A stretch of DNA of 64,000 nucleotides from Moniliella sp. 'wahieum'. Its lineage: Eukaryota. Shown in pieces: positions 1,262 through 53,113 of this stretch. The stretch's first letter is position 1; every line of letters starts with the position of its first letter. The position numbers and the translations under genes are program-made. The DNA lies in contig RSEE01000017.1 in NCBI GenBank assembly GCA_003971905.1, forward strand, positions 744,001 through 808,000, given 5' to 3'. Under the pieces are notes generated by a model. That model worked only from the letters and a program-made list of their open reading frames with translations. It searched no databases and had not been told where the DNA came from.

Positions 1262-2477
1262 GGCGCAGGGAGGGGAGGGGGGGTAGCTGATGTGGGACGT
1301 AGGAATGGAGAGGGCGTGAGGGGGGGGGGCGAAGTACAGATGAGATGGTGGCGGCTGCGTAGAGAGCAGGTCGAGAGAGCGGACGCAAGTAGCGCATGCT
1401 GTGTATAGCTCAACGGGGCTGCGCACACGATACCGATAGAAGCGTACGCGCGGCACAAAGGGCGGTGCTTCTTCGGCTGTCAGAGAGAGCACACGGGCTG
1501 CATCCCACTGAGTTGGAGTGCATCGATTCGAATGTGCCTCGCTTAGCCCCAACCAGACCCAGGATGCCTCCCGACAGCCTCGCTTGCAGGTGACAACGGA
1601 TGGCATCAATGCTATCATAATGTTCTCTCCGTAGGCGGCACTGTGGTCTGAGGGGCCCGACAAAAAGCTGTGATTCTCCAGTGGCACTATATATGACGGC
1701 TATAAGCGCAGTACTCTTGCAGATACCGCGTGCCTTATATTATTTCTGCAAGTTCTCTTGCAGCGCGCTTACCTTTGCTTCCGTCTTGCAGCCATCACCA
1801 GGTATGGGGAAGATGGAGGCCAACACAAAATGCTGAAGAATGCGTGCTAGTAGCGCAGCGTAGTAGATATGGCCAGGGCGAGATGGCTGGACAGCATGAG
1901 ACGCCATCACAGACGGAGGCCTATGACGTACCCATGGCTAAGCGCTAATGGGATCCACCAGGCCAGAGGGGAGGACTGGCTACGTAACGCGGCAGTGGGG
2001 ATTCCCTTCTGCCGGGCTATTCGTATTCCGCCTAGTGTGGTTCCGCCTTGCTCTGGCGCTTGAGCTTCTGTGGATTGCTCTGAGACAAGTGCTCCCAACG
2101 GGATGTGGGAGGCCGGAGAAAGCACAGAACGCAACAGAAAGCAAAGAACGCAGCAGAAAGCAACAGAAAGCCACACGTCAGCGGGACGATGGATGACTGG
2201 CACCCCCCTCCATGGCTCCGTCCCCTCCCATGGCTCGGGACGTGCGTGGATGGCATGCATCGTGCGGTGGGGGGGTCGTGCGAGGGTGCGCTGTGGTGCG
2301 CCCATCTGGCGTTGTGTCACATGTCACAGGTCGTTGTCACCCTGCCGTGTCACATGTCACGGTCACACGCCATGCCTCCCAAGGTCTGCTTTTTTGGAGG
2401 CGGAACGCTGATCACGTGAAGACGTCAGTTCGAGCCATGCACAGTCCCTCTACGCTTCACACCGCCCGCCCGCCTGC

Positions 2478-2527
2478 AGCCACAGCAGGCCACAGCAGGC
2501 CACAGCAGGCCACAGCAGGCCACAGCC
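2478..2527. repeat. 10-bp tandem repeat (CACAGCAGGC)x4 plus a partial copy
   Basis: Directly visible, upstream of the kinase ATG. Confidence 0.9.
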
Positions 2528-2789
2528 ACATAACCGGCACTGCCCAACCCAACCTCTGCTGCTGCCTCCACCACCCCAACCCAACACCAACACCACTCCC
2601 CCGCTCCCATCTGACGCTCCAGCCCGACCGCCTGCGCTGTGCCGCCCATCGCCTACGCTCCCTTTCCTCCCCCGCCCACCTCTCATCCTCCCCTCCCATC
2701 CTCTCCTCTCCTCTCCCCTCCCTCCCTCTCCCCCCCTCCTCGCTGTCGGGAGCGTCGCGCTGAGCCCAGGTGCGCCGCACTGAGCGTTG

Positions 2790-7878: not shown

Positions 7879-8241
7879 GCCCGGTTGCCCTTCCTTGTCT
7901 CCCCCTCCCTCCTCCCCCCCTCCGCCCTCACCTCTTCTCTTCTTCCCATCTACCTTGGCCGCCGCTAGCAATGCACTTCCTTCCTTTGAACTGGGACCCT
8001 GTACATGCGTACATGACATGAATGGCTATCCACATCCTTAGTCTCTCGCTACGCTCCCGTTGCAGTTGCATTAGCTCGATCTATATTCACTGTTTGTTTT
8101 GTGTAGTTCAGGTCCAACTCGGCTTGGTGGCCTTAAGTAGCCTGTATCACAGGTGTCGAGTGGGGCCTGGGGGAGTGGGGTCCAACGCTGAAACGTCGGG
8201 CTTGGTGGATGACCGTGGCGGTGCGGAAGCGGGAGGACGAG

Positions 8242-9955: not shown

Positions 9956-11711
9956 GGCGGGGTGGGGGGTGGAAGCTAGTGAGGCGAGTGGAGCTAGTGA
10001 GCACTGCGACGGATATGGGGTTGGTATTGACATGATTGACATGTCAGTGCCATCACACGCGGCCGCGAGCAACGGGAAGCATAACGCGTGTCTGCCGCCC
10101 AGCCTCGGCCAGCCCGGCCCTCGGCAGCCACACACCGGCACTCCAGCCGGTCACTGTCCCCGTGCCACCCCCGCACGCGGCACGGGGTGAGTGAGCGGCA
10201 TTGCATTAACCCCGCCTCGTGAAAGTACATGCGCCCCAGCCCAACTGCAGCACACACGGCTAACCCTAGTGCGTCCTGCGTCCACCCATCCGAATGGAGA
10301 TGCACGCGCTTTCAGGCAGCACCCGCACGTGATCCTCGCTTAATTGCTCACCAGCTGGCCGCCCCCCACCCCACCCGCATCCCCCCTCCTACCCCACCAG
10401 GCCAGACTGTGCCCGCAATCGAGTGCGACATGGAGGAGAGCAAGCACCGAGTCTTGCGCAAGACTGCCCCCGTCCTCGTCGCTACGTCCTTACCTATTCC
10501 TCGCGTCTCGCAAAAGTGATGCCGACGGATTGCAGGATTGAGAAGCTGCCGTCGCTCAAGCGCTCAAGTCCCTGTGCACCCCCAGGTATCCCGCCCTTCC
10601 CTTTCCCTTTGTTCATTCTATACTGTAACCATATATCATTGACAGAGCTTAAGGGGAGATCAGGACCCTCCGGTACCCGCCATCCGTTCCCATACCCAAG
10701 GTCGAGCGTGTGGATATGGATGAGCGTGGTAGACATACGAGCGGTGAACCACATCTCCATTGAGACTCAGTTGTTTATTCTTGCCAGTTCCTAAGCATCT
10801 TGCCCCCTGTCTTGGTGGCATGGTATCCTCGCGTCGTCAGAACATAAGGGAAGGAGGGTTCTTTTGGGTGCATCTGCCAGACACTTGGCGTTCTTTTCGG
10901 ATTATGCTTGTTCCAACAGCCGAAGCAGCCCCTTCTCCCGGTGTTCCAGCAATGCGGTGCTCTCGTGCACCACCCTTCGGTACGAAAACAGCGCCTCCCG
11001 TGTTCCCGAGTCTGAGTCCCGCAAAGTGTGGTCCACACTCCATTCCTGATCCTCCAAATACTCCAGGTCCCATCACACGGTAGTCAGTACTCTTCGCCTT
11101 ATTCCTCCCCTCCGAGGCCGATCCTCTTCTTCCACAGCCGGCTCATTGTGGTGTATCTACTCCCCTCCCCCATGGCCCGTGCACTGGGCCCATCCCGCTA
11201 TTCCGTGGAGGGCTGACGCGCTGAGGGCTGAGGCTGAGCTCAGCGTTCTGAGGAAGCAAGGCACTTGGCGCTTATTAGAACTTCGATCGTAGAGAGGATG
11301 ATCGATGACATTAGCACTGATTGCACCCTCCCCCTTTTAATGACACACCCCAGCTGCCAGTCAAGCCACTTCTTAAAACGAGCGGGTATATACATTGAGG
11401 CCGAAAAAAGCGAGGAGAGGCCGGGAGGGGGCTATGTATATTGCGGCTGGGTCAGAGTTACCTTTTATGAGTTCCGCGGAGTCTGAGTTTGAGGCATGCG
11501 TGTATCAAGCTGGCTCGAAGCCTGGGGTCTGGAAGCTTAAATCGTGACACTTGCCACATTTAAGGTACGACAGTATCATATTGTGGTGGCACAACTTCGT
11601 AGCCAACCACCTGCCAGTTCTTGCCTCCCCAAACATGTGCTGCGTTGGGGCGTCCATGTAGCGCACACGGGCCTCCCTAGTATGGTTCCATTAATTGCAA
11701 CACCTTGGGAA

Positions 11712-11719
11712 TATATATA
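11712..11719 (+). promoter_or_regulatory. TATA box of the SDR gene
   Basis: TATATATA about 165 nt upstream of ATG 11883, followed by a C/T-rich leader. Confidence 0.5.
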
Positions 11720-11882
11720 CCCTCTCCATCCCGCAGAGGAACCATCATTACACCTCCCCCCCTGAGCTTCACGCTTACCAACTCTCTCCATCTATCCACT
11801 TCCACACCACCCACGTTAAGGATTCTCATCCACCAGCGTCGCCACTTTACCGGTCTAGCATCTGCAACACTATACACCAAAA

Positions 11883-17015: not shown

Positions 17016-17425
17016 TTGAAGCTTCAAGTTGGAGCTTAAGGTGGCATGCTGAGACACTGAAGAGGCATGTGCCATGTTGTGCCATGTGACATCACCGGCG
17101 CCGAGATGCCAAGGCCTGAGCCTCAGGCCTCAGGCTGAGGCGCTGAGGCCGACCATATTGCCCGTTCATACTACGTTTCCAGTCTCAAGCCGGCCATTGG
17201 GACATCCCGTATACGCCGGAGGCCAGAGCAGGGCGGATATGCGCCCCCACAGGCCCCACAGTCATTGCAGTAGCATGATGCATGATGTCACACCATCACA
17301 AGCCACATGCACACATTACCCCGGTGACCAGTGACCGGTGACCGGTGACCAGCCTTTGGATAGCTGGTGACCGGTGATCGATTCGGTTATCGACCACACC
17401 AATAATACTCGGTCACCGGTCACTT
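17016..17425. repeat. Cluster of 7-bp palindrome micro-arrays (AAGCTT, AGGCCT, ATGCAT and ACCGGT types)
   Basis: TTGAAGCTTCAA at 17016; CCTCAGGCCTCAGGC at 17121; ACCGGTGACCGGTGACC at 17334-17350; GGTCACCGGTCAC at 17411. Confidence 0.8.
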
Positions 17426-19127
17426 TACATAATTCATCCTTGTGGCGGATTGTGGCTTGGAAACGCCGCGAGCACTTCATCGCCTTGTGTATCCGAACAG
17501 AGATGAAAGCGCTGAGAGCCCTGTGGCTGAGCGAGCGAGCGAGCGAGCAAGTGGGACATCCATCAACTAGGATGCTTGATCTGTAAGATCCCAAGTCTTT
17601 CGCGGCCCGCACGGACGCGTGCACGGTGAACACGTTTTCAACCCAGTACCCAAGCGGCTGGAGATGTGAAAAGAGAATGATCAAAAAGACCTACTCAAGT
17701 ACCTCAATGCGCAGATGACAATGTGATTGAGCACAGCAAAATGCGTTCAACCATACGTTTTGCTTTCTTCGACGCCAGGTCAAAGTGCATTGAGGTCACC
17801 GAAAAACAGGTTCAAATTGGTCTTCAGGGCACACATGCGCTCTGTGGAGTTCCTCGCGCAGAAAAAGTGTTCCACAGTTTGGACTGAGATCATTGTTGGA
17901 GTCCATGTTGGTCTGTACTTCTCCCCCAGTCCAAGTTGCGGCGTTGCACGAGGTCACATAGGGGACGACGGTCTTCAAACTTGCGCGCTCCATTCGGGAT
18001 GCATATATCTCAATGAGCCGGTTGCGGAGGGATGAGTAGGAGCCATGATAGAGGGGGACTGGGCGAGTTGTAATCGCTACCGAGTGAGCCATGGTGGGAC
18101 GACCAGGGATGTGTAGGTGGACACTCAGTATGTGGAGAACTTTCGAGTATACAAGTAAATGCGATCAAAGTTGCGGACCCGAAGGTGGAATACATGATGA
18201 GACGGCAACGCTAGTGGAACCGTGGGGAAGGTGCTGAATCGAACGTTGGAGCCAGCAGAATGTTATTACATGAAAACGTATCAGAGGCACGCTCGAGAGA
18301 TTGTCTTCCTTCTATGAATTGTCATGACAACACGCAGGTGTACTATGCCACGAACAAGACTGCCAACAAGATCTTTGAGAATTGGAAGGCTCTTACTCTG
18401 AAGAAGAGTCTCATTGAAGATGGTTCATCACTCCATATGCCTACCACGCTCATTCGTCTCAGCTCGCGCTATATAAAAATGCGGCTTCTAAGCGACTGAC
18501 TATGCGTTCAGAAAGTATTGACATGCTGGCAACACCACTATATAACCCTTTTGATTGGGTTGGGGCAACATATGCGGGATAAGGCTGAGCCAGCCCATGG
18601 GCCCAGCATTTGTTTGTCCCTACTTGGAGTTCTATATGCAATTTGGCTATGAATTCGGATGTTAACGGGGTTACCGGGTTTGATGTGAGAGTCGCGATGC
18701 GAAGAGGTGGCGAACGAGAAGATTCTTTTAGCTGTCTCGACCGGGGTGACTTTCTGTTATACTTTTGACACATGTGTATATGCATATAGCCAGTTAAAAA
18801 AGTTCTTATCAATTGACCCTCACTAGTCAGCTTCAGGCTTCGCACCATATGCAAACGCCCGATGGATACCTCTCTTCTTTGGGCGTTTGCCGTGTGTGTG
18901 GACTTCTCCCCTCCCTCCAACCACATGATTGATCCTTAGCTTAGCGCTTAACTCATGATGGTGAAGCTGCGGTCCCGAGTTGCCTCGCGGGGCTGGCCTC
19001 TGGGGATGATATAAGGACTTTGAGTGCCGTGTGCTTTATAGCTTGGTTCTTTTGCCTTGGGTCTGGGCGCCGTTTAAGCATCCCTTTATAGCGCTTAGCT
19101 CTTCAACCTTACCGGCCTTATCCTTAA

Positions 19128-21240
19128 CTCAAGCTTCAAGCTCCAAACTTGAAGTAATATAATTGAATTGCAGCTTTTCATAAGTTGAACGTTGAACGGT
19201 TGAACGTTGAACAAGACAACACCGCAGGGTTCTGTTGTCCTGCCAAGCCCTTCGGGAAAGCCGCACCGCCGGTCCAGGCGGACTCACTGAAACATGCACC
19301 CTGGCTGAAACGGGAAGAATCTTTTGTTCTTCCAAATCTTGGCACTCGGGGCCGGTGTGTAGGAGGGTGTGGTAGGGTGTGGAGTGCATGTATAGCAGGT
19401 GTAGCACTGTGTGGTGCAGTTATCGATTATCGCTATCATATATCACGCATGTCACATGCATGTCACTTGTCACATGTCACATATCATGCATCATGCATGC
19501 CGTGCGTCATGCATCATGCGTCTCTCGAGGAGACCGTATGTGCCAGATCTCATTTGGCCTTCGTGCCCCTGATATCGCCAAAACATCAGATGGTATCAGA
19601 TCTCAGATCTCAGAGCCCTACTATATATAACGTTCTACGCTCCGCCGGGACCTTCCGTGCCAAGCATCTCTCAGCCTCGGATCTTTCGGGTATTGCTAGT
19701 TGCTTCGTCACCGAGCACCCAGGGCACCCTCTTCGCTTGAGCGCATGGACCAACATGTGTATGGAGCCACCAAAAAGAAAAGCGAGAAACTTCCTTGCGC
19801 GGAGAGAAACGCAGCACACAAGTGTGGTATCTGCGCACAAGAATCTGCCAGCAGCCTGTGCGGCCCCTACTGTCCTCGGACACAGTTGCTCGCACCGATT
19901 GGGTATGAGATCGATGATCGCTGATCATCGATTATCGATCACAAAATGTTTCTAACGATCATGCATCATGCATCATGATGCAAGTGTACATGTAACTCGT
20001 GAACGCTCCGTTGCACACGTTGAACGTTGATCGGTGATTGATGATCGCGTTGTTCCGCATATGCTTGACATCATGCATCATGACAGCATGTCAGTTCTTG
20101 GCGTTGAAAAGGATGACATATTAAACGACAGAGGGGGGCAGGTCCAGTCCAAAAGGTACATGGTGACTGGTAACCGGTAGCCGGTGCGAGCAACCGAAAA
20201 GACCGTCATTGTGGCACTGAAGGGAAGTTGAAGCTTTTGAAGAACGTTATGTTGAAGCTGAGAAGTCTTAATTGAAGCTTATTGAAGCTTGCCAGAGAAG
20301 CTTGAAGGTGTGTCCGTTATCCGCTGGGTTGCGCCGCGCTTCTCGCATACATCAAGCTTTCATGCATCATGTACCAAGCTTCATGAGCTTCATGGCGCAG
20401 GAAGTAGGCCCGCTAAAAACCCACTCTACTCTTCAATAAGCGAAGTTACACATTAGGCTTCAACATAACCGGCACGGGCGAAGAGACGAGAAAAGTGCTT
20501 GAATCATCTATTAATTGTTTCCCCAGAGACGCTTGGCATGTGTACGTTTCTGATCAGGATGATGTGTGAACAAAATGTTTGGACGTTGACGTTGAGGACG
20601 TTGAGGGCGTTGCGGTGCACCTGAAGTTTTGCTCGCTATAGCTGAATGACACTCCTGTGTGACAAATGTCACACTTCGAACTTCAACTTGAAAACTTTTT
20701 GAAAAGCTTCACTACTTCGTCCTGACTATATACTAGGGCAAGGTGGTGTTGCTGAACGGATGCAAGAGGAGGGCAGTTCGTCATATTTCCATGTCTGGAC
20801 CATGTGCCGAGTGTTACTTACAGCCGAGCCGATTGGGACGTGTCGAAGACAGATTGTCGGCCACGGGCCAAGTGCGAGCAATCCCGGCGGCACCCAAGAC
20901 CTACGCTCTCACATGCACATGTCAGATCTCAGAAGTGAGTCGTGTGTCTTAGATCGTTTTTATTTCGTCACATACCACCTGTGATCTATGCACTGGGGCA
21001 CAATCGATGATCGGTGACCGGGACCTTTAAAACTTTATTTTTGGAAGCATGCACGCACACATAGATAAGTGCATGCTTGCTCGGCTTGGCAGTAACTAAT
21101 AACTGGTAAAGTGTAGCGATGGTGACCTTACCGGCCTGTGACCCGTGACTTGGTGACAGTACTGAGTGCACTCACTGAATACACAACTGAGTACTGATAG
21201 ATGAAGAGACGAAGTACACTCAGACTGAGTACACTAATAG
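19128..21240. repeat. Dense cluster of 7-bp palindrome micro-arrays
   Basis: TTGAACGTTGAACGGTTGAACGTTGAAC (19185), TATCGATTATCG (19421), TGTCACATGTCACA (19468), AGATCTCAGATCTCAGA (19598), ATGCATCATGCATCATG (19961), repeated TTGAAGCTT (20228-20306), AGTACTGAGT and CTGAGTACTGA (21158-21197). Confidence 0.85.
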
Positions 21241-22813
21241 TATACCGCTGCATCAAAAACCGACATTCTTTAATCAATCATCTAGAGATTTTGAGCCCAA
21301 TTGGCCTTAAAAATCGCCGTGATGACCGGTGCTGCATTACTAGTTACTCCAGAAGACCCATTCCACATGTGGCATCCTGCATTATATGTGGGGGCAATAG
21401 GGATCGAAGGGAATAACCGTCATGGTAGACGGCATTGCACACACATGGTATACTCTTTCTCTATGAGAGCGAACCACAAGCTTCAAAAGCTTCTTTTGTG
21501 AAATCACGCCAGCGGTGGCGGGGGGGCGAAAGAACGGAAGCAATGTGCGATGGGCGTGGAGGGTACCCGGTACCCCCCGATGCGCGAAGTAGGGGATTGG
21601 CTATCGCCGTTCGATCGCTTCAATGCCAATTTCACATGGTAACTTGACGTTGAAGTCCAAAAGCTTCGACGTTTAATTGTTGTGTTTGGCTCTTGTCTTC
21701 CTTCTGTTCGGAATTTGTCTAGTCTATACAACCCCGCGGACGCAATTTGAGTTTACAGCACGCCAAGCACAGATGTGCCCATGCCGCATTGGCATAAGAT
21801 ATTGGCATATCTAATCCTATCGATAAATAAAAATGGCGCGCCAAGGCCTGTGGAGGAGAGCCGGACCGTGCATTTTTGTGTGACGCCGTGCGGGTACGCC
21901 TGAATGTACGGAGCGACACGAATTGGAAAACGACAGACGAGCTGAGGCGCTGAGACACTGAGGTTGTTCGCAACCCTGGCGTTGCGCGTTTCGGTGGAAC
22001 GTCACGCGTGACTTACAACATGTGGGGGCCTCGGCGCCCAGACTTGCCCAGGCCAGGCTCCTTGGCGGTGGGCACGATGTGGCGGTGGGTGCTCTTGATC
22101 CTCCCCGAGGCCTGCAGCAAGGAATGACGTTGATCCGTGAGCACCCCCGTTGATCGCGATGAACGCTTGGAAAAGTCCCGTTTTACGCGCGTGAAGAGGA
22201 AGAACCCTGTATGCGGAGTCAAACCCACGCTGGTGGTATGGGGCCCCGAAGCCACCTACAGGAGGGTGCAACTGTCCTGATGTTTACGATCTAATCATTG
22301 GTGTCATTAAGCAGTCCTCAGCCTGAGCGCTCGCGCTCACTCATCGCATGCTTACAGCGCTCCATAGAGGATGGGTGCAGCAGGATGGGTTGGCCTGCTG
22401 GAGCGACATGAGCGTCAAACGCGTGCAACAGCGCTCCGGACCTGCTACGTAGCACAATCATCTTAACCGCGTTAAGCTTTAAGAATCAAAGCCACGCACA
22501 TGATGATGCATGAAAAACTTGAAGCTATTAAGGTGTAACATGGAACAGGGTGTAAACAGGTGTAACATGGACCCAGCAACCGCCCGCTATCCGACTATCG
22601 ATCATCGATGAATCATCCACATCATTTGGATCATGCATCGTACATCACACGTCTCCCTTCGGAAGTCACACGTCACACACCGACATCATACATCATGCAT
22701 CACCAATATGCGGGCACACCAAGTCTCCCTTGGGCTCAGGCCTTGGGGTCATCCGGTCATCCTCCAAGTCTTGTTATAGCCGTAACCAGCTTGTGGCTTC
22801 CGTGGCTGTCCGC

Positions 22814-30178: not shown

Positions 30179-32000
30179 GCACAGAAGGGTCCGCCTGTCC
30201 CGGCCCGGCATGTTCTATTCCCGCGTCACATCTCACCCATCGACATGGGCGCCATGCCGTCACGCGGCACGTGTCACGCGGCGGCGATTGATTGAATATT
30301 GAAACGTCAACATGACGGGGAAGGGCAACGCCGGCAAGGCGCTTCTAATACTGACTGCCAAGCTGCGTTGGCTGGGATTACTAGTTACGTCCGCAGCGGC
30401 TAATCGCGCACAGCGCCGATTGGCTACCAAGCCAAGCACACGCTCACTTGCTCACAGTGCCTGGGGTGCGTCAGCAGCCCTGGCCTGGTGCGCTGGCGGT
30501 GCCTGGCCACCGGACCAGTCTGACCACGCGGACCTTGTTCCGGTGCACGTGACCGGGTCAACCGGATCACCTCGCGCCAGGCTTGACCGGCTGGCCGGTC
30601 ACATGTCACATGTCACAGTGACTGTCACCGGTGACCACTCCTTACCCACACCTGCCGAAAGGCGACAGTTGCAGAGCCGCGGACAGGGGGGGGGATTCCG
30701 GCGCAGGTTTCCTTCCTTCGTCCGCATCGCCCGACAACACGCAACCTGGCGCTCCGCAGCCGCTTCTTGCATCTCTGATCTATCTATGAATGACGTCGGG
30801 TCGATGGATTGAGAGGGGTCATCGTCATCTCCATACAATCGCCAGGTTTTACCGGTTACCGGCTACAGATTACCGGTATTAACCCACCCCAACGATACAT
30901 CGTCCCTCCCGCCAGAGCCACGCCCCCATGCTGGACCCTCTTGGACCCGCGGCGAGCACCAAGGTAAAGGCAGTATGACTTAACAGAAGATGGAGATGGG
31001 AAAAGGACGAGATCATCGATATTCATCGCGGGAAAAGGAGGCGAGGTATTATATACCTCGGAGAAGATAGCGTGCGAGCTGAGTCACGAGAAAGCAGGGG
31101 AGCAGAAACAAAGGGCAAACAGGGTCTAGAACAAATGAGGGTTCATCAAACCTGATGACTATGTGACCATGTCGTTCTGATCCCGACATGACTAGGACCG
31201 TTGTACAAAGAAGCAACTCAAGTAACAACGTGGAGAAACGGAAGAAACGAACAGCTTTCTTTTTCCGGCAGGGCTTTTCTTCTCTGGTCGTCCGCTGTTG
31301 CTCTCAATCCTACCAGCCTTTTTCAATCTGCCCACCTTACTCTCTCGGAGAGATGGCGTCCGTCGTCGTTGTTCCTCTGCCATCGGTCAACTGACCTGAC
31401 ATGCTGACAGGTGAAATGGGTTTCCTGCACGTCGTCTATATCTTTTCTAGTCGATGGAGTAGTAGTAAAACAGTACGCTAACTGCTGTGGGTGGTGCCAT
31501 TATGCAGTAGAATATAAGCTGAGGCCGCTGAGGCCGTTGGCACAAATACATCCGTCCAATCTAAGATCTATAAGTGTCGATGAACCCCTGGGACCTAGAT
31601 CGTGAGAAGGTGACGAGATGATATTGATACCCGGAAGATGTAATGGTATTATCGATTATCTGCCAGCTTAATTGCTCTTCTACATGCAGGACCCTCAAAA
31701 ACCCGCTCATGCACTAACTGGCACCTTCAAACCGTTACATGTTTAGGACATAGCACCATTGGCAACCACAAACGTCATGCAATGTAGCATGCAATGCGCA
31801 GGTCCAACAGCTTAGCCATGCTTGGCCCCCCCACCCGCGTAACACATTTTGTTACCCGTTACGCGTTACCACCCCCTCCTGCGCTCTTGTGGACATGCAT
31901 GTACCCGCCGACTTTCTCGCCCTCGTTAATCAATTTGTGGGGGTCACCCCCGGTCACAAGTGACGGTGAGGTCACTCCAATATGGTGAACCAGGACCCTC

Positions 32001-33490
32001 TGTTCACGTTCAACGTTCAACGTCGTTCAACGTCCAATAACGTTCATTGCCGGTGGGATCTCATGGTATGCATTACATGTTTTACTAAGGCAGACAGTGA
32101 TATGCACCCCATCCAGTTGCGGACCGCGAGCGTCGATGCTCAGCATCTCTGTGGAGTAACCAGTAAGAGCTCAGCTTATACTGAGCATTGAGAGTTTCTC
32201 ACGGGCACACGTTCGGTCAACCTCTGTTCCCCTCCTTTGCTTTTGATCAACATGCTACAATGCTGACCACAGTTAACCACCGAGATGAGCTCCAGTTTTT
32301 CTTGATGGAGAAGTTGTGAATGACGACCCCTCACTTATGTCGCAGGCCTCACAGGCCTCACATGTCACAGAAGGCTGAGGCTGAGCTGAGGCTGAGGCTG
32401 AGGCTGAGGCTGAGCTCAGCGCCGAGGCTCACGTTTTTTAAGGGTCACCGGTCAAGGGTTAAATTTAACACTAAGCTATTATAGGGCTGAGCACGCGCTG
32501 AGCGATCCCCACAGGCCTTCTTAGACACTTTTGCGACGCCACGCTGGTGTAGTGGCGCCGGGAGCCCACGCCCGCAACCGTCGGGTTCATTAATCATTTC
32601 TTGATGCAATATTCTCCGTTCTGGAGCGAGAACATTCCCTAGCCTCTACTGTGGCCGGTGACCGGACCGGTGACCCCGTTGTCCATGGAATAAAGGACAA
32701 GTGGGAAATGGTAACATGGACCACTGCCCAGCACCTGGCAACCGGTAATGGGTAACGTTTGCGGTATGGCCTGGTATGGCCTGGTGTGCAGTATGGCGCG
32801 TTGTGCCCATCGCTCAAGAAAGTGTGAAAAGCTAATATGCGATGTTTAACAGAAGGGGGCATTGGCCAAGTGTACGCTCTAATAGCCTGGGCCTGGCCCG
32901 AACAGTGTGAAGGTGCTGACGATGACTGAATACTGACGGGTCCGTAACTCAGTACTCGGTGATTCATGATTGAATTCAGTGCACGCAGATTCCGTACTGG
33001 CCGTACTGAGGAAACTAGTAACCCAGTAACTCAGTAACTCAGTTACTCGGTGTGAGTTCTGAACGATCTAAACTCAGATCTCAGATCTAGTATCTACTGG
33101 GCAATTGCCATTATCAAAGGGACTGGGGGTGACCGGTGACCGGTGAGGCCGAGGCCTGAGGCGGCTTAGGCCGTAGCGGCTTAGGCGGCGCGGTGGGCCC
33201 AGCTGGGCACTCAGCCAGAACAGTCATGGACTTACGCTTAGCTTATTAGTCTCCTCTTCCCGCTGAGCCGCTAGGCGGCTGAGCACAATGGGCCACCACG
33301 CACCAGGGGCCGCCCTGGCCTGTGAATTCAAAAGCACCCAGCTTTAAGCTTTACGTTACGCAGCTTCAGCTCATGCATCATGCATCACCGGCCGTCACGC
33401 GTCACGCGTCACTAGTCACTGGTCCCTTATTCTGAAATCAGCATCATTAGTGCGTCACAGTATTGGGTGACGTGGGTGACGGGTGCGTTA
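32001..33490. repeat. Cluster of 7-bp palindrome micro-arrays plus (GGCTGA)n
   Basis: ACGTTCAACGTTCAACGT (32006), (GGCTGA)n at 32373-32420, CTCAGATCTCAGATCT (33073), GGTGACCGGTGACCGGTGAGG (33128), and a composite tract at 33366-33423. Confidence 0.85.
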
Positions 33491-36241: not shown

Positions 36242-37896
36242 GTACTGGTTACGCGACCTGGCGGCGCCTCCTACCCCCCCCTTCTCCCCTTGTGCTACAT
36301 TCGTATCCGTGGTACCGCTGCATCTGCCATCACAGTGAAATGTCATTCATCTCATCAACGCTCTTCCCTTCCATGGATATAGCCAGGATTCATACATGTT
36401 AACACGGAAAACGATTCTCCATGCACCAATCTTGAAGCTTGGCACCTGATAATCGACTTGGCCGGCATGATGCATATGACCCGAAAACCATGTATGCAAA
36501 CCAGAACAAAGACCATGATTGTGTTTTATATGATGGTCTGGTTCTTATTGAGGGCCGAGTAAGTTATTGTTATTAGTAGCCGACGACCATCGCACACAGT
36601 ATAGCTCAGACAATGACCCTGCTGTTAATGACCCTTCCGTAGGGGCCGGATAAGCACAGTGCGGGTGACATCATGGGGACACCGAAGGGGTCTCACCGGT
36701 CACCCTCCTACTTGGTACGTCTCCGACGAGGTGGTAACAAAACGCCGAAGAAAACCTCTGCGTGGGCGTAGATCTGCTAGAGTGCGGCAGGGAACGCTAT
36801 GGGCAGCACGAGTGATGAGCTATCAAGGCGTGCAAGAAGGCAGGGCAGTCAGCCACAAGTCCTTCAAGCAAGCTGAAGGGAAGGAGACAAGAGCCAAGCA
36901 AGCAAGTCATAACAAAGGGGTGGCGCAGCTCGCGCAAGGGGCGAATCACCCGAACCAGCGAGCGTCACCGATCCATTGGAGAGAGTGCAGGTGAACCCTA
37001 CCCTCTATAGCAAGATCTTGTCCAGCTTTTGAACAAAAAAGAGCTTGAAGCTTGACTTTAACTCTTCTGGTCACACAGGCCGGTCACCGGCCACCGGCCA
37101 CTAGTCACTAGAGTGGCGGTCCGGTTTGCTTTCCGGTCGTTCCGGTTGGCGGTTGCATTGATGGCAGCGTCTCCTGTTTCCGATCTATCTATCCGACCGC
37201 ATCGAGGCCGCATTCTTAGACCTTAGGTCCTTATGGTTTAGGCCGGCCTTACCGCGGTGAGATCTCAACCTCTCAACAATCTCGCCGTTTGCAACTGCCC
37301 ATCCGTGGCGAAGGCGAATTGTTAATTGCACCACACACAGCCCCCGTGCGGCGACGGCCGAATTGCGCCGTGTCGAGCGCTGAGACTGCCGCAGGCCGAG
37401 CGAGCGGCAGGATTCTGGCTGGCAGCCGCAGAGCGGCACACTGCCCTGCCGCCCCGGCCGTTGCCAGCTCACCGGCCGTATCACCCAGCCAGGAGCCTCG
37501 CGACGGTTTAACCGCCGTTTCGTAATCGAGCGCCCACCGCCGCCCACTCGCCTGCGCCGAGCTCCTGGGGCTGGAAGCGATGTATGTCACGTGGTCAGGC
37601 ACAGCACCCCTGTGCGGCCGCAACCGAGCCAGCCTGCCGCTCTGACGCTCTGCTGCTCCGCTGCTCCCTTACGGACGCTGAACCAGGCACGGGAAAAAAG
37701 AAAAAAAAAACTGCACCCTCGTGTCTCCGGTTGCACGATGTGTCACACTGACCACACCCGTTCCTTGATAGGCCGCATGAAGTAGCGTGGCCGCCTCCCC
37801 TCCCCTTATTTTCTTCCCCACCACCACCACCTCCTTCCCTTGCCGAAACTCGTTTTCGCAAGAGCTCGCAACTCCTCCTCGTCTTTTCCACACGGA

Positions 37897-37944
37897 ATGC
37901 CCCTGCTGCCCAAGCCACCATACTCCGTCTCCCGTCCCTGCTGA
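37897..37944 (+). promoter_or_regulatory. Upstream ORF MPLLPKPPYSVSRPC* in the HOL1-homologue leader (candidate polyamine/eIF5A-responsive uORF)
   Basis: ATG CCC CTG CTG CCC AAG CCA CCA TAC TCC GTC TCC CGT CCC TGC TGA, ending 39 nt before the main ATG. It resembles the S. cerevisiae HOL1 uORF MLLLPS*. Confidence 0.65.
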
Positions 37945-37983
37945 GTTGCCTGCTTGCCCCCCTCCCACACCACCCTCGGCTCG

Positions 37984-39618: not shown

Positions 39619-40134
39619 ACGGGGTTCCTACATCCCCTCTCTCAGATCCCCACTCCATCTTTCTTCATCTCTACAAAAACTGATGCCCCTCCGTGGCCGC
39701 CTCTCTGCTGCGCGTTTACTTTCCGCTTTATTTGATCCGCTGAGGCATGCATTTCGGTCCTCAATGCAACGATGATAATGCCTATCTTTGCTCCCTCCCC
39801 TACCTAACTCACACCTGCTCTCAAACCCGAGTTCCACTGGCGTATCTGCATAGCCACCGTAGCAGGCCCTCCGTTACTAACCGCCTACCGAGTGGTGGCA
39901 GTGCTGCTACATTCTGCCAGGTAGGAAGGTGTAGTTAGTAAGGGCTAAGCTTTCTGGCAACTCCCTGATTAATGATTCGTAATGAAAAGTTGTTACCGGT
40001 GGGTATAACGCCAATGACGTCGTGATGACGTATTAAGCTTCAAATGGGAACCGTTCCGCATAGCATGCACATCAACTGCATCATCCGAATGCCCATCCAA
40101 CGGCGACAAACCCCTCTAATTAGCGCATCATCAG

Positions 40135-40740
40135 CGGCTCAGGCCCTCAGTCCCAGTCGGAATGCGTTGAGCGCCTTGAAGCTCTTGAAGCCTTGAAGCT
40201 TGGAGCTTGAAGTTTGAAGCTTGAGAGCTCAAAGAGCGCTTGAACCTCCGTTTCAGCCTGTTTCAAGCCTCAGGCCTCACACACTTTCGCACAGCGTACC
40301 TGCGCCTACCTGCGCCCCTCCGCCCAACCCAAACAGGCAGCAGGAGGTCAAAAGCGCAGTGTTGGCCCAGCGCGCTCAGCCTCAGCGCTCAGCGGCTCAG
40401 CAGCTGTGAACCCAACGTTCAACCCGTTCCCAGCAAGCCTCTGCTGGCGTCTGGGCTCCGACGGATGCAGTGGGATGGAGGCGAGCGAGCGTGAAGCTTG
40501 AAGGGATCATGATGATCGATGATAGATCGAATTGATCCTGCCCTCGTGGGCGTAAGACACTATCGCATTCGACTGAAAAGAGGGGGGCGGGACAGGGTGG
40601 GATTGGCAGCCGACCGATCGATGATCGATGAATCGATTATCTTAGGGGTGTTTCAGTCATCGATGGCCCACCTCTGTCATCGACTTCATTAATCATTGAT
40701 GAATTCCTCAATCGGATGTGCGCTGTTGATGATCGATGAG
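40135..40740. repeat. Cluster of 7-bp palindrome micro-arrays upstream of ROT1
   Basis: About 6 degenerate TTGAAGC units at 40176-40224; GCTCAGCCTCAGCGCTCAGCG at 40374; CAACGTTCAAC at 40413; ATCGATGATCGATGAATCGAT at 40617. Confidence 0.8.
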
Positions 40741-41885: not shown

Positions 41886-42053
41886 CCCCCCCCCCCCCAT
41901 TAAGCCTAATCATCTGCCCTCCCTCCTCTCGTTCCCTTGGGGCCTTCCTTTCCCCTCCTCTTCTGCTTTCCCCCCCTTTGCTCTATGTCGCATGCTGTTG
42001 TGGATTCCCTTTATTTGCGTCGCTATTTGATATGGCACGACGGTTGGTCGTTT

Positions 42054-42092
42054 TTTGCTTTGCTTTGCTTTGCTTTGCTTTGCTTTGCTTTT
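42054..42092. repeat. Pentamer microsatellite (TTTGC)x7
   Basis: Directly visible 3' of ROT1. Confidence 0.9.
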
Positions 42093-45409: not shown

Positions 45410-47291
45410 GGTGGCACGCAGCTGCGCTTGGGACACCAGCAACAGACGGGGAGGAGGCGGGTGCGGGTGGGGACGAAGGGCAGGAGATGCTGGTGGCAGC
45501 CAGGCAAGCGGTGGTGGGGCACAGACAGGAGCAAGCAGCGGTGGGGCGATCGGAGGGAGGCAAAAGGCGTGCCGGGAGACGCTGCTATATACTCTTGGCG
45601 CCAGCCCAGTCCATCTCCAGGCCTCTTTGGGCGGCCCAGGGCCCACTGCCCCCCTGGCCCGAGTTGCTGCGCTGGACCAGCACGCATGCTAGCAGCACTC
45701 GCACTGCCCCCGTGCCGCCGCGGCATGGCCTCGTCGGCGAGCGCGCCTTAGTGTGCCCCCGTGCGCCAAACGCGAGCTTGCATGGCGCCAGTGCTGCTGC
45801 ACTCTTGGCACTCGCGCCGACGGCACCACGCCGCAGCCTGCTGGCGCCTGCTGCAGCCCGCCGCAGCTGAGCGCTCAGTCGGAGCACTCAGTGCTCCCTA
45901 GTGCTGAACCACTCACCACCGCCCAGCGCGCATGCGCAGCACCAGCACGCCCTCCCCGAGGGCGAGCGGCTCGCGTGTGCTGCTGCTGCGCTCCCCCGTT
46001 CCATCACACTCAGCGCCAAGCGGCAGCCATTCTCGCTCGCCAGCCGCCGATATCTCACAGTCGCACCGTGCCTGGGCTGGAGTGCCATCGCCTGCCGAGG
46101 CCCACGCCGTGCACGCAGCCGCCGTGCCCCCAACCCCCCTGACCGGTTCGCTTGCGGAGGCAGCGCCCAACGGACGCTCGCCCTGTGGCGCTGCCCGCCC
46201 TGCGCGCACAAGCCCGCCCTGCCTGCACTACTCGCGCCCACTGCAGCATTCCGCTCTGTGCCGTGGAGCTGGAGCTTGGCGCAGCAGCGGGCGGCGCGGC
46301 AGCCGCACTCGGGGTTCTCACACTGCCCCCATGCCCTTATCGTGTTTTCTTCCAGCTCCTGTGGCTCCGCGGCAGCCTCAGGCCTAGGGTTCTTGATACA
46401 GCGCATGTGTCTGCGGGCGCGGTACCTCGAAATCAGTGCGGCCAGGTGCCTGGAGTCGCACCTCTCCTGCCGTGCTGGAGGGACAAGGGGCTGCCTCGCC
46501 TCGGCGTATGGACGACAAAGCCTGCCCGGCTGGCCAGACAGGGCCAGATCCATCGGCTAATCGCATCAGGAGCTGCTAGGATCCAGCCAGAACAGCGTGG
46601 ATTTCGATTACCGATTGTCGATTATCGATTGCCGAATCCCGCAGTGCACTCGCCCACGCCATCTGGCAGCCACACCATCGGCCAGCTACCGACGTTTCTT
46701 TTTCTTCGCCTGGCCTTTCCTGTTCGCAAAAATACTCCTATGCCTATGCACTGGGCCACTCAGTAGTGCCCAACATGCTCTCATTCAGCAAACAGTACTC
46801 AGCACCCTAAGTCCCTCACTACTCGCCGATGCCAAGCCCCGACGGCCCCGACGACATCCCCCAGGTCACTTCTTCCTCGAGGCCTTTCCGTCTCACGTAC
46901 CTTTCTTCAAGCTGCCCCCGCAGGTCGTCCATGCCAAGTTCTAAGGATGGCCGTCAGTTGGATTAACGTCGAACGTTTTCATCACACGCAGCAACCTCGC
47001 CGGCGGCCCCAGTAAACTTCAAGCGCAGCTAACCACGTAAAGCACGCACCCGAGACGGTCTGCGGTCTGCCAAGCCCTAACTGCCCCAACCTCCAACTAA
47101 GCCAAGAAAACCCTCCGGAGCCCTGCGGAACCCCAGCGTCCATTCGCATCAAGTCGCTAGCTCTCTGCTGTTGACACTTCCTCGTGTGACATGTGACGAA
47201 GCCTGGACAGCCAGAACGCCGGAGCACCTGGGCGTCGGAGATGATGCATATTGCGAACAATAAGGTACGAAAGGGGACCGAGATGGTTGCG

Positions 47292-47635
47292 TCAGAGGCT
47301 GAGCGTCAGGCCTCAGCCTCAGGTGTCTAGATATATGTACCTGAAATTGCTTTGCCAAGCCCGTGTGGACTTTTAAGTTCAGGCTCCACGCTTCAGTACC
47401 TCAGTACACTCATCGGTATTACTCCGTTCATGGGGTTCTATGGGTCTTGAGCGATTTGAAGCCAAGATGCGCGCGCGATGTATACTAGATGCGCAATGTA
47501 CCGACGCGGCGCGATCTTGCATGACTAGTGACTAGTGACTAGTTACTAGTGACCATTGAATTGAACGTTCTTGAACACACGCTGAGCGGCTAGATGTATC
47601 GTGAACGTGTTGAACGTTGAACGCATTGAACACGA
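47292..47635. repeat. Cluster of 7-bp palindrome micro-arrays
   Basis: TCAGGCCTCAGCCTCAGG (47306), ACTAGTGACTAGTGACTAGTTACTAGTGAC (47524-47553), TTGAACGTTGAACG (47610). Confidence 0.85.
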
Positions 47636-49793
47636 CGAGGTTGTGGCCTGTTGTAGCATGTGGTCCCTATCGAGTTGCCTACCTCCTACACGTATCTCTA
47701 TTGCGGTATGCATGTGTGCTTTTCGTCTCCCACAGTGCCGCATGATGATACATCCCAAAAGTTACATGTCAATGTCATTGTCCGAGGTTGTGTTCTATGT
47801 TGCAGGCGGGGCTACGAAACGAGAGGGAAACCAAAGGTCCACAGTCAGAACAGGGGGGAGTGACAAAAGACCACTCGTATTGGAGGGAAAGAGGCATCTC
47901 GTACAAGGAACAAGAGTGTCGCGGAATCAGACAGGGTCAGACATACTTGGTCACAAACATATAGTCACCAGCTTGACTAAACGCTAAACACGCTGACAAT
48001 AATGTGAGCGATGTTTTGTTGTTCTGCAGACCCTGATTTCTCCCTCGTTCATGGTGCTTAAATTCTCCGATCTGGGCTCTCGATCAGATGTCATCTTTCT
48101 CTCTATGAAACACAGCTCACCTGGTCCCTGCTTCTCAGAAATGAATATGATCCGTCCCCTTTCCTTCTTCATATCCATCGATAATGAGAGAAAAGAGCAA
48201 ACGGGAAAAAAGGGAAGAACGAGACGAAGTGTACATAGGAAGCAGGGGAATTGGGGCGAGCTTGAATCACAGTATAGAGGGAGGTTCGGCAGCGCCCTCT
48301 TCGTTCTGCGTGGACCACAGACTGGGGGCGAGATACCAAGAATGTACAAAATCTCTGTTTTCTTGGCGCTATAGCTCACCGTCCGTATTACTCTCGGTCA
48401 CCGAACAGCACGCCCAGACCGGCGTCAAAACAGATCGAGGGTGTATCGTGTCTCCTAGCTCTCATGTTAATCGTCCGCGAAAAAGGATCATTTCACGGTG
48501 TGTGTTGGATATACGTAGCCTCTGTTCAACGTTCATTGGCAAAATGAACGTGCACCCCCTCTCCTCTCAGTTTGCCATTGCGGCTCGTCATTAGCGTCTC
48601 AGGATATGTGTGACCTTTCTGTACGTGTCTTGGGGTTGGGCGGCCTCTTTGTGCGTCACTATTAACTAATGCGAGTACCGTCGATGGTATCAGTAGCCTT
48701 TTGGGACGGGGTATCAGCAATGCCGGCGGGTGGAGATAGCCTACCGGGTGAGGACCAAGAGAATAAGGGTGTCAATTTACGTTGGTCTCTAGAACAAGGG
48801 CAGCGATAGATGACGTAGGCCCGAAGTTGGCAAATTCACCTGGCAAGCCGTCGTCATCCTCTCCCTCTCTCTAAAATTGAACATCTATCAGTTCTTCCCC
48901 AGTATATATGCTGGGGAGATAATGCTCACACAAAACCACAGCAAAAGAACGAGAAAAGATCACTGGAAGAATGGAAATGTGCGTCATATACATTAGAAGA
49001 CTCGGGCGCGATGGCTGATATCATAGTGAATGGAGAGGAGACGCCACAGGTTGTGGAACCTATGAAACGTGACGGAAAGAGAATGGGTCTGAAGAGCAGT
49101 TAGCGGTTAGCAGTCAGCCCATGGTATTCAGAGTATTGTGGTTCTTTTGAATTGACATCCTTCATCTCATCTGAACGGATGAATACGCATCCGTTTCCTC
49201 TGCAGCGCGTCGTGGGATTGCAGACCCCCGACCCAGCGCCTACGCTCGCCTTTTTGTCCCTCTTGTCGGAATTGCATCGATGTCACTAACTGGCTAGCTC
49301 GTCTGAACGATGTTGAACAAACCGGTGTACTCCCTTGTGCCAAAACTGAGCATACGTAGTGAGCATATGTTGCTTTTGGTCTATTATATAGATCGTGGAT
49401 TGAGTCCCCTTTCGTTTCACACCCCATTACAACTGGGCTATCACCAGTGGGTTGTGTTAGTGATGAGGAAGTTGTCAGACTTATTTCAGGGCTTATTCCT
49501 CCGTCAAGCGGCCTTCTCTCACCTCCCAGCGTTCTGTATGTGGGTGGCGCAACGAACTCGCAAGGAAAACGCGAGCAGTGCACAAGCGGCGTGGAGTATC
49601 GATCATCTCTTAACTGGTGGTTCAGATATTTGCATGCCTGTGTATTCCTTAATAGAGGTGACACCCTTTCGCCAACCATGGACCTGTACGTGGTTATGCA
49701 TGCCCTTCACGGTCCCTGCCACTAAAAGCCTCATCCCACCAATGTACGCGATAGACGGTCTTTGCGACATCTCTGAACGCTGTGCATTTACAT

Positions 49794-51167
49794 TTACTTG
49801 AACTTGCGCGCCTGGAGCTTCCAGATCGTCTCGAGCATGATGTTGTGGGTGCCCTCGTAGATCTGGCCAATCTTCGAGTCACGGAGGTATTCTCAATGCC
49901 CATCTCACGGTAAACCCGATCCGCCGCACCACTCGACAGCGCGAGCCGAAGCACGCTCGGCAGTGTTGGCAGCAAACAGCTTGGCAATCGCCGCTTCTTC
50001 CACAAACGGACGACCTTCCTCCTTCAACCGTGCTGCATTGTACACCAGCGCACGCGACGCCTCAATCTGCATCGCCACCTCGGCCATCTGGAACTGTATG
50101 CCTTGAAACGAGGCGACGGGGCGACCAAACTGGTTGCGCTCCAGCGCATACCGCACATCCTTCTCGTACGCCCCCTGGGCCAGACCCCATCTGGGCACCA
50201 ATGCCTACCCGGCCTTCATTCAGGATCTCAATCGCAATCTTGTACCCTTTCCCCTCCTCGCCAATCAAGTTCTCAGCTGGACCCGGACATCGTCCAAATT
50301 CAGCGTGCAAGTCGCCGATGCCTTGATACCCAGTTTCTTCTCCTTTTTCGCAATCTCAATCCCTTGCTCCTTCTCCACGGCAAAGGCAGAGATGCCTTTG
50401 TACCCCTTGGACGGGTCGCCCTGAGCAAGATAATAAGAATCCTGCTTCGGCAGCATTGGTAATCCACATCTTGCTGCCGTTGAGAATGTAGGAGCCATCC
50501 TTGTCCTTCTTGTACGACGTCTTCATCGCGAACGCGTCCGACCCCGACGACGGCTCCGACAGGGCAAAGGAGCCAAGCGTACCCTCGGCAGCAAAGGTAA
50601 GTACTTGTCCTGCGAGGCCTTGTTGGCGTACTTGCGCATCACCGTTGCTACCAACGTGTTATGCACATCGCACAACACAGACACGGAAGGGTCCACCTTG
50701 GCCAGCTCTGGAAGGACAACAGATTAGCACACTGCGGCCAAAACAGGAAACAAAGCACGACAAGGGAAGGCAAGGCAAAGCAAAGCAAAGCCAGGAAGGA
50801 AAGAACCCCACCCATCGCACGCACGTACCCTCAATCACAATGATCGCCGAGGTAAAGGACGATCCGCTCCACCATAGTCCGGATCCGTCTCGATGCCCAT
50901 AAAGCCATTCTCAAACAGACCTTGATGATGGCCGGGTCCATCAGCTCCTTCTCGTCCATCTCCGCAACCTTGGGTGCAATCACTTCCTGGGAAAACGAGC
51001 GGATCGAGTCGCGCAGATCTCTTCTTCCTCGGAAAACTTGTTGAGCGAGTTGATGCCAAACGGCGAGTCAAACTCGCGCGCGGGCACCGAGGAAGTCAAC
51101 GTGCGCACGCGTGGGCACAGGCGGATGGCGGGCCCAGCCGAGCGAGCGGCAGTGCGGGCAAGCGCAT
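49794..51167 (-). CDS. Short/branched-chain acyl-CoA dehydrogenase, mitochondrial (ACADSB-like)
   Basis: IAPKVAEMDEKE, GLFENGFMGIE, EELAKVDPSVSVLCDVHNTL, GSFALSEPSSGSDAFAMKT, NGSKMWITN, EKKLGIKASATC, LNEGRVGIGAQM, RNQFG, RDSKIGQIYEGTHNI. Intron 50708-50828. Confidence 0.93.
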
Positions 51168-53113
51168 GGGCACAGCAGGAAGAGGATGCCAGGCAGCAGA
51201 AACGCACAGGTGGTACCAATCGACAGAGACGGCGGAGGCGAAGGCAGATGCACAGGCAGAGGCACAGGCGCGGCCCGCAGCGTGGACAAAGATTTATCCC
51301 ACCCCTTCCCGCGCCTGACGCCATGGTTAACGGATTCCATGGACAAGGAGGGCCGGAGCAGGGGATTGCCGAGGACCGAAGCGGACGGGTGGGAGCAACA
51401 GAGCAGCACGCACGAGCACACAGTCTTCCGCTGTGGCTTCCCCACGGCCCGGCTTTGCCGGCTGCCGGGGCTGACATGCTGCCGCACTAGGGCAGTCTTC
51501 ATTTCCCCCGCGTCTCAGACAGACAGAAGGAGGCGAGGTGAGCGCAGGGAGCATTATGCCACTGTTGCGTGGGAGTTGATTTGCTGGGCCATTAATATTA
51601 TTCGCATGCTGCTTGTCCTGGGGTTGGGGTCGGCCGTAATAGCCACTGCGCTAACCGCTGAAGCGCTTATTCCCGGAACCGAAGTATCCTCTGATGTGTA
51701 AGCGCTACAAGGTAACGACACCCACAGTAACGTATTGGCGTTCAACACGTTCAACAGGCCAGGCGCTACCACACGACCCACCCACATTGCGAAACAGGGA
51801 CAAAACAAATTGAAGAAAGCTTCAGATGGAGCTGGTATTAGGTCTGAAGTTGATCTGAAGCTTCAAGGTCCAAGATTGAAGCTTGACGAAGTGCCGTTGG
51901 GACACAGACCACAGACAGTCGTAAGAATGAGAGTCATCCTGCGGGTAGACCTAACGTCCTCAAAACGTTCAACATACCCCAAATCTTCTTCCTGAAGCTA
52001 AAGTAATGCATATTGTCACAGCCTACCGTATGATAGAGGCAATCGCCGTACGAGTAGCAGGCGCACACAAACGCTTGCCACCACTCCTTCCGCACATGTA
52101 ACACATACGCCCAATACACCCTGTAAGCGCTACAAGTCAATCAAACGGGGCCTTATACGGATGGAGGGAGGTTGATCATCGACAGATATCCCTCTCGACG
52201 TTTCTTCTGTTACTGTCTCCCTACATCAGCCACACAGAAAGAGATTCGTCCGCGAAAGGGAGGAGAGAATAGTACCAGCGGTGTCGGGGGTTGCAATGCC
52301 TGTAGTACGTAGGCCGCGACGCCTTACCACCCGGTCGTGGCCCCTTAACTTCTGAAGCCTATACGTGCTTACACCGGTCCTGTTGTAACGGTCTGGTTCC
52401 CGAGAGAAAAAAGCAACCTTGCCTGACGGGGCCGAGAGGGGGCCAACTCTCTGCCTGTCGAATGCGAAAAGGAGATGGGTTCTTTCACTCCCCCCCGTGC
52501 TTTGACGACCGGAATCGGACCTTGAAGCGGGCTGGGTCAATTCTCGCCCGCGCTGAGCCATTGGCGTGGCACGACGGACGGTCTTTGGTCCGATTGCTCC
52601 TCCTATGAGATGGGGATGGAACGATGGTCTCCACGTACGACTGTCTTGTCCCCGCGCCTAGGGGCAGTTTAGCTGGTTCCTTGCGCTTGGGGGCGCACTG
52701 GCTGCCCTTGGTGCTGTTTAATTTGCTTCGTTTTCCGGTCACCCGTAAAGCGTAACGTGCCTCGACCTTTGGCTACCCCCCAGAACAATACACCAGTATA
52801 TACCTGCACCCTGCTCCACATGCAACATGATGCCGCCAACGTTTCCTCACTAAATTGATTGACTGACCAGATCTCTACCCCTGCATCCGACTCAGTCCGA
52901 AAGCAGTTTGCTCTGGCCTTGGCTTGACCGTGGGACGTAGTCCCATGTGGCTTGTGTGATGTTCGTCCACACAGGAAGCAGAGCTACGCTGCTACGAATG
53001 GCAGCCCCTCCACGCCAAACCCTGTTGGAAGCGATGGCGTGCAGGAGCTGCTTACGGAGAGGTGCCCAGGGCAAGGGGATGAGAAGCCTAGTGAGGCCGG
53101 TATACACTTACAC

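Follow-up and report, generated by a model that had tools for sequence, protein, structure and literature searches.

Transposases that close the DNA flanking an excised element into hairpins are described among the hAT, Transib, RAG and MULE enzymes (PMC5499845), and the opening of such hairpins is reported to occur chiefly at +2 in the case of Artemis (PMC2175297) and 2 nt 3' of the apex for both Pso2 and Artemis (PMC3299998). In Ustilago maydis, '10-bp repeats' are cited as suggested transposon footprints, with Laurie 2012 as the original source (PMC4081816). This article describes palindromic heptamer tracts in the genome of Moniliella sp. 'wahieum', based on a 64,000-nucleotide stretch of contig RSEE01000017.1 (G000:C17:744001-808000, referred to throughout as the window) and on a survey of 80 sampled stretches (854 kb, window included) of an assembly of 69.5 Mb in 223 contigs (C-numbers; L-numbers denote stretches taken from it). 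The tracts repeat a T-N-A triplet (TNA) every 7 nt around palindromic tetramers, and they are probably the excision scars of a flank-hairpin cut-and-paste transposon with a 7-bp, TNA-centred target. Scars of this kind are already known; their geometry, scale and array-building are unusual.

The first-pass annotation of the window had drawn attention to TCA or TGA recurring around palindromic tetramers (N4), and all 13 heptamer units that it quoted were found in place. The suspected excess of palindromic N4 was borne out as well: 69 of the 131 T[CG]A-N4-T[CG]A pairs in the window are palindromic, compared with 9.0 +/- 3.0 under an order-5 Markov null (60 simulations per order, window sequence). 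The null means were 3.7-5.4 for orders 1-4 and 19.3 +/- 4.1, with a maximum of 29, for order 6, and the 62 non-palindromic pairs are close to the null (39-57). Genome-wide, TSAACGTTSA occurs 4755 times and its reversed control 228 times. The survey yielded 635 tracts, a density of 0.74 per kb that by extrapolation would correspond to about 52,000 in the genome; 526 of the 635 hold only two TNA copies, and the longest holds nine. Tetramers made of A and T only, of which the first-pass annotation had seen none, do occur in the window (TTAA at 32587, 39966 and 40686, ATAT at 30293, TATA at 19436), and all 16 palindromic tetramers are found in the 854 kb, AGCT being the commonest (120) and AATT the rarest (5).

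TCA and TGA, taken at first as the anchor, are indeed preferred, but the true anchor is T-N-A, with TTA and TAA used at ~40% of the TCA/TGA per-site rate. Events that carry mirror (P) bases amount to 15.7 per 1000 triplets at TGA, 15.6 at TCA, 6.7 at TTA and 6.6 at TAA, and to at most 0.74 at other triplets after removal of non-TNA matches that overlap a TNA event. Strand bias is absent (TGA 381, TCA 377) and pure TTA/TAA pairs exceed mixed pairs, on which grounds TCA deamination was rejected as the driver. Apart from TNA itself, the only target preference seen was a slight G/C bias at +/-3. In 464 kb, spacers are palindromic in 372 of 669 same-centre pairs versus 49 of 184 opposite-centre pairs, and because the two anchors are almost always the same triplet, the anchor is duplicated, not mirrored.

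These counts bear on replication template switching or snap-back, by which two bases would be copied backwards and synthesis would restart at TNA via T:A microhomology. Formally, such a switch describes the net product, and perfect 10-bp palindromes exist (the 49 opposite-centre pairs), but the geometry is fixed at period 7: palindromic spacers show no excess at periods 5, 9 and 11 (49/181, 8/373 and 3/232 palindromic, respectively) or at ANT, CNG and GNC centres, and the mirror has no loop. Template switching would also leave unexplained the plain 7-bp duplications, and the junctions with both 7-mers intact plus P bases, that are described below, and we regard it as very unlikely. From the earlier suggestion of a mutational or repair mechanism (hairpin or template-switch), the hairpin is supported, in view of the 7-bp TNA duplication with two P bases, while the template switch fits poorly on account of the fixed geometry and the missing loop.

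The flanks account for the tetramer. Among 397 isolated palindromic pairs of the survey, one flank is copied in 254, both in 66 and neither in 77, and 160 of the one-sided copies are exactly 2 nt long; the counts for the window are 24 left, 25 right, 16 both and 6 neither. The basic event is xyTNAab -> xyTNA-ab b'a'-TNAab, or its mirror xyTNA-y'x' xy-TNAab, and no palindrome is required at the site in advance. Plain in-register 7-bp duplications make up 16 of 452 isolated non-palindromic pairs, where about 1 is estimated by chance. Junctions in which both 7-mers are intact carry P-base fillers in 68 of 81 cases with 1 nt (chance 40), 72 of 98 with 2 nt (chance 18), 7 of 14 with 3 nt (chance 0.9) and 6 of 22 with 6 nt (chance ~0), versus 54/119, 14/135, 3/106 and 0/68 at the control centres ANT/GNC/CNG, low-complexity cases being excluded. 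Of the 6-nt junctions, 44 are split 4+2 or 2+4 and a single one 3+3, which indicates that P bases arrive in twos from one end. The model proposed below accounts for 749 of 1465 junctions at period 7 (115 +/- 9 with shuffled flanks), 110 of 623 at period 8 (shuffled 8.8) and 75 of 818 at period 9 (shuffled 2.5). Odd palindromes at period 8 number 28 of 288 versus ~18 by chance, and even-centred N4 predominates. The scars imply a 7-bp duplication, although, taken by themselves, they may also fit a 9-bp duplication that has lost a base on each side.

Empty and filled alleles are available in the haplotig pair C41/C42, in which C41:195-230 kb aligns with C42:200-235 kb at 93.5% (915 mismatches in 34,720 columns, that is, 2.6% substitutions). 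Among the 67 indels of at least 5 bp, 15 are of 7 bp, seven of 14 bp and one of 21 bp, compared with 11 of 6 bp and two of 8 bp. Judged by eye, 13 of the 15 seven-base indels fit the model and two do not; the former comprise eight new P-type fillings of single sites, one plain duplication, one approximate case and three array steps. Six of the eight fillings are at TNA (one with a substitution in a copy) and two at the near-cognates TTG and GCA. Array steps are also seen in four of the seven 14-bp indels, and one 9-, one 10- and one 13-bp indel consist of a full 7-mer plus 2, 3 and 6 mirror bases, respectively. The filled alleles hold mirror bases that the empty allele lacks; the direction of an event is unreadable from two sequences, yet mirror bases can only be gains. 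The sequence shows directly that 7 bp are duplicated, that P bases are added in twos, that TNA is preferred and that empty and filled alleles exist. Turnover is fast, with tract length kept between haplotigs in only 10 of the 34 tracts on C41 and 9 of the 31 on C42, counts in which neighbouring tracts of a hot spot are partly double-counted; this hot spot, G000:C41 212.3-214.2 kb, holds ~20 haplotig length differences within 2 kb, nearly all of them in TNA tracts. Indels among diverged repeat copies include a few fitting cases, and the 7-bp peak is absent there (6 of 899 gaps). A separate observation is a 29-bp AT-rich insertion in C42 at a TCA site (opposite G000:C41 ~206,702), possibly filler captured during end joining.

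The window has a syntenic homeologue on C33 (~70-80% identity) that is alignable in gene-like blocks only, which makes a tract-by-tract comparison impossible; tract-site density is similar in the two (103 in 80 kb on C33 and 86 in the 64 kb of the window). Blocks conserved with C33 make up 12,884 bp and hold none of the 74 window tracts, where 18 would be expected (p ~1e-9). Tracts are absent beyond 52,900 as well, which upholds the first impression that genes and the compact 53-64 kb gene block are avoided. Ordinary slippage or a long-read consensus artefact might be considered here, given the many 1-2 bp indels of the assembly (311 and 111 in the 35 kb) and the haplotig arrays that differ by whole units. 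However, most tracts have just two copies, mirror bases are new in the filled alleles, and the tracts avoid conserved blocks and occur in both homeologues; slippage covers array growth only, and as a general explanation it is extremely improbable.

The same observations bear on the other reading of the first-pass annotation, a selected cis-regulatory or chromatin code in which a factor would read TSA half-sites spaced by 4 nt. Clusters of tracts are found upstream of genes (4.1-6.7 per kb versus 0 in 25.2-27.0 kb) and conserved blocks are avoided, as such a code might lead one to expect. A half-site reader would nevertheless accept non-palindromic spacers, yet those are near chance, and the spacer is set by the flank, so that N4 follows from the neighbouring bases. 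The fast turnover, with 10 of 34 tracts keeping their length at 2.6% divergence, together with the avoidance of conserved blocks, argues against the code, which we hold to be highly improbable; a secondary use of some tracts may occur. The clustering upstream of genes may instead reflect open chromatin or local hopping.

A duplicated target combined with loop-free mirror bases points to a transposon that duplicates its target on insertion and seals its flanks as hairpins on excision. The element would insert at xy-TNA-ab and duplicate these 7 bp; on excision, the transposase, like RAG and Transib, would close each flank into a hairpin whose tip is symmetric, and a host nuclease of the Pso2/Artemis type would nick it 2 nt to the 3' side of that tip. 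Opening would yield palindromic 3' overhangs of 4 nt, with ab b'a' at the left end and y'x' xy at the right, and opening at +2 accounts in this way for a 4-nt palindrome as seen in the tracts. End joining would mostly retain one overhang and drop the other; the product, TNA-[ab b'a']-TNA or TNA-[y'x' xy]-TNA, would be 7 bp longer. The plain duplication and the classes of 6, 8, 9, 10 and 13 bp would result from alternative trimming. Since a filled site is symmetric, both overhangs should pair perfectly on a second visit and add exactly 7 bp, and slippage may also take part in array lengthening. Mixed arrays point to such hit-and-refill cycles, though slippage can add units too. From the scars we infer a transposon, hairpin intermediates, opening by a host nuclease and repeated targeting of filled sites. 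The absence of tracts from genes would follow from selection against frameshifts.

Several points weigh against a transposon origin. About 25 events in 35 kb at 2.6% divergence demand a very high insertion-excision flux, most of the polymorphic events come from one haplotig pair with one hot spot, neither flank is copied in the 77 of 397 isolated pairs mentioned above, and the assembly is indel-rich with frameshifts. In addition, no element with a 7-bp TNA-centred duplication, with either inverted-repeat or bare CA..TG ends, was found in 1.03-1.05 Mb (1.5% of the genome); the scan for bare CA..TG ends with a 7-bp duplication gave 65 candidates, a chance level, with one 9-mer end present twice. 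A rough calculation suggests that a few dozen copies with ordinary mobility could sustain this flux and could go unseen in a survey of 1.5% of the genome. Profile searches of the genome gave no candidate for MULE (PF10551; the control matched 3 of 14 genomes, and frameshifts reduce sensitivity) and no match for hAT (PF05699, PF04937) or KDZ (PF18758), the controls of the last two families being silent too; a Plavaka profile was likewise unmatched in the frameshifted assembly. PIF/Harbinger elements make a 3-bp duplication at a TNA target; their profile, PF13359, gave no candidate in the frameshifted assembly, and the duplication described here, unlike theirs, extends 2 nt past TNA.

The sole clear CACTA transposase gene also counts against the proposal, since it is decaying, has no visible element ends and is unlinked to the scars. 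Transposase_21 (PF02992) matches at C17:557095 (E 1e-12), with a weak second match on C34, and no element ends are visible at either. The C17 gene (L121, G000:C17:556-559 kb) has a haplotig copy at the same position (L133, G000:C62) and no close relative in protein collections (best E 9e-21, 29% identity); its features resemble RAG1 also (score 0.92), and heptamer tracts sit just upstream of it. The two copies differ by 19 synonymous and 63 non-synonymous changes, compared with synonymous:non-synonymous ratios of 13:9, 9:2 and 8:5 in host-like open reading frames chosen by eye. This indicates neutral evolution, and the gene was rejected as a domesticated agent.

The gene is nonetheless relevant to an element-free nuclease, for example a domesticated RAG/CACTA-like transposase, that would cut on either side of TNA and seal hairpins, with unequal rejoining, for instance between sister chromatids, duplicating the 7-mer. 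A scar density of 0.74 per kb with no matching element in 1.05 Mb would suit such an enzyme, as would a CACTA-type gene without ends, with RAG1-like features, at the same position in two haplotigs. Yet that gene evolves neutrally, and we know of no single-cut chemistry that duplicates 7 bp and seals both ends; we consider this explanation unlikely. With similarly low probability, a free RAG/CACTA-like nuclease could be a standing, promoter-biased mutator that cuts around T-N-A, offset by 7 bp and leaving hairpin ends, and writes self-renewing heptamer arrays, the U. maydis 10-bp repeats being its frozen product.

Cut-and-paste elements have been recently active in this genome. A 118-bp miniature inverted-repeat transposable element (MITE) with 15-bp inverted ends CATGG..CTATG (e.g., L025:2069-2186 on G000:C19; L051-L080) has 81 candidates and 40 scored copies, five of them 100% identical, and a 2-bp target duplication of any sequence (27 of 31 copies by eye). 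From its sequence, it is probably CACTA-like and recently active; no autonomous partner was found. A 2.7-kb CACGGGCG element (L082:2909-5629 on G000:C2) has inverted ends CACGGGCGGTCGA and a 2-bp duplication TC; an end similar to this one is also present in L058. The MITE and the 2.7-kb element were rejected as scar agents on account of their 2-bp duplications, and it is a further difficulty for the transposon proposal that the CACTA-like elements seen duplicate 2 bp, not 7.

Under the transposon proposal, the process would be analogous to V(D)J coding-joint formation carried out at a transposon donor site. The joints formed by RAG, Transib and Artemis are described with loop-free mirror bases, mostly two, on one end and trimming of the other, and with a 4-nt palindromic overhang from +2 opening (PMC2175297, PMC3299998), as in the tracts. 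The tracts differ from V(D)J joints in that both ends copy one 7-bp TNA-centred target and in that they are inherited and run to tens of thousands, and no RAG-like enzyme could be assigned to them. hAT elements (Ac/Ds) share the target duplication and short P insertions from flank hairpins, and short palindromes are reported in Candida too, but the Ac/Ds palindrome is described as odd, with the complement of the border base at its centre (PMC5873905), whereas here it is even-centred and the border base is kept. Fungal hAT7 is described with a 7-bp target duplication (PMC12730594), although hAT profiles are unmatched here, with silent controls. The CMCT clade (EnSpm/CACTA, Mirage, Chapaev, Transib, Plavaka and ESTA) is described with motifs in common with RAG1 and duplications of 2-5 bp (PMC12730594), and CNEST of Cryptococcus with a 2-bp duplication (PMC12810828). 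This genome has a Transposase_21 gene and CA..TG-ended elements in common with that clade, but the scars imply 7 bp, in contrast with the 2-5 bp described for CMCT (PMC12730594) and the 2 bp of the elements here. Kyakuja elements (KDZ) are described with 7-bp duplications (PMC12730594), but KDZ has no match here and its control is silent; no report of Kyakuja footprints was encountered in the literature examined. The MULE Muta1 also forms flank hairpins, but more than 90% of its excisions are reported as precise (PMC5499845) and MULE has no match here. By analogy, then, the chemistry would match CMCT and the duplication length hAT7 or Kyakuja, and no family agrees in every respect. The U. maydis repeats belong to the same subphylum, are intergenic and are proposed footprints, and TNA-N4-TNA is also 10 bp; the comparison is by description only, the mention of the repeats in PMC4081816 giving no mechanism. 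No prior description of the TNA heptamer-tract pattern was found in the literature searched, most subscription papers and all supplements being outside its scope.

A reporter assay typically yields a few hundred excision footprints. The ~50,000 natural footprints extrapolated here would record the opening and joining of hairpins in a basidiomycete with V(D)J-like precision. In regions upstream of genes the tracts would be among the main sources of indels, and they offer a concrete route to new tandem repeats without slippage. They predict a transposase that combines RAG-like chemistry with a 7-bp TNA-centred target, a combination that we have not found in print, and the old suggestion regarding the U. 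maydis 10-bp repeats becomes testable by the same flank tests.

Along the window, the first tracts (1939..2359) are at 1939 (TAA-GCGC-TAA, before the start given in the first-pass annotation), 2317 and 2350, followed by isolated footprints in 10026..11308, at 10026/10037, 11220 (a plain 7-bp duplication without P bases) and 11299. The densest cluster (17017..22702; 30 tracts in 15.7-23.0 kb, 4.1 per kb) is upstream of an MFS transporter gene (MFS_1 match). It includes a three-copy array, TGA-CCGG-TGA-CCGG-TGA (17332..17348), a one-sided footprint, TCA-CTAG-TCA (18820..18829), in which neither flank is copied as read and which is decayed or mutated, and a member of the 9-bp class with both 7-mers intact plus two P bases, gtTGA[GG AC GT]TGAgg (20591..20606). 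The second cluster (30293..33418; 17 tracts in 29.5-33.5 kb) has AT-only spacers at 30293, 32459 and 32587 and ends in the mixed array TCA-CGCG-TCA-CGCG-TCA-CTAG-TCA-ct (33395..33418), whose tetramer switches to match the right flank, pointing to the same TCA having been struck a second time. Three scattered tracts (36693..37267, at 36693, 37046 and 37258) precede the cluster upstream of the Rot1 gene (39966..40739; 10 tracts in 39.7-41.2 kb, 6.7 per kb), which has a 9-bp class footprint at 40175. A cluster of seven tracts (45868..48535) includes a five-copy TNA-CTAG array at 47522-47552, and the last tracts of the window (51740..51886) are one of the 9-bp class at 51740 and two of the 7-bp class at 51856 and 51877.

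The organism appears to be a smut-related basidiomycete, since the best named relatives of a Prp2-like helicase fragment are Malassezia and Ustilaginales (51-60% identity). Reading frames in the window are frequently broken by frameshifts, which suggests an unpolished long-read assembly; Pfam matches were obtained for 11 of 44 window frames, including a kinase, an alpha/beta hydrolase, two MFS transporters, Rot1, MYG1, a helicase and a thiolase. Two levels of duplication, the homeologues at ~70-80% and contig pairs that are ~94% alike (C41/C42, C17/C62), suggest a hybrid or duplicated genome with haplotypes partly uncollapsed. A search of the genome sequence found no ~94% partner contig for window 17-36 kb. 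The hydrolase (8150-10150), the second MFS gene (37752-39618) and the gene block at 53-64 kb are not represented in the blocks that align to C33:60-140 kb, and they may be lost, moved or outside the C33 stretch compared.

Dispersed repeats are also present in the window. Solo-LTR-like (long terminal repeat) families were rejected as agents of the scars, as their duplications are of 5 bp where readable. One solo LTR (30981-31188) belongs to a family with more than 30 scored copies at 73-84% identity, with 5-bp duplications in three copies and a TG..TA end. In L026, a four-copy TCA-CATG array begins at the last bases of a copy of this LTR. Other dispersed repeats at 36778-37007, 13870-14061 and 10655-11096 have copies in other loci, the first two resembling solo LTRs. 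Finally, a dispersed repeat of ~79 bp, 85-97% identical, occurs in L010, L026, L034, L040 and L042, and its sequence may represent a small RNA gene or the head of a short interspersed nuclear element.

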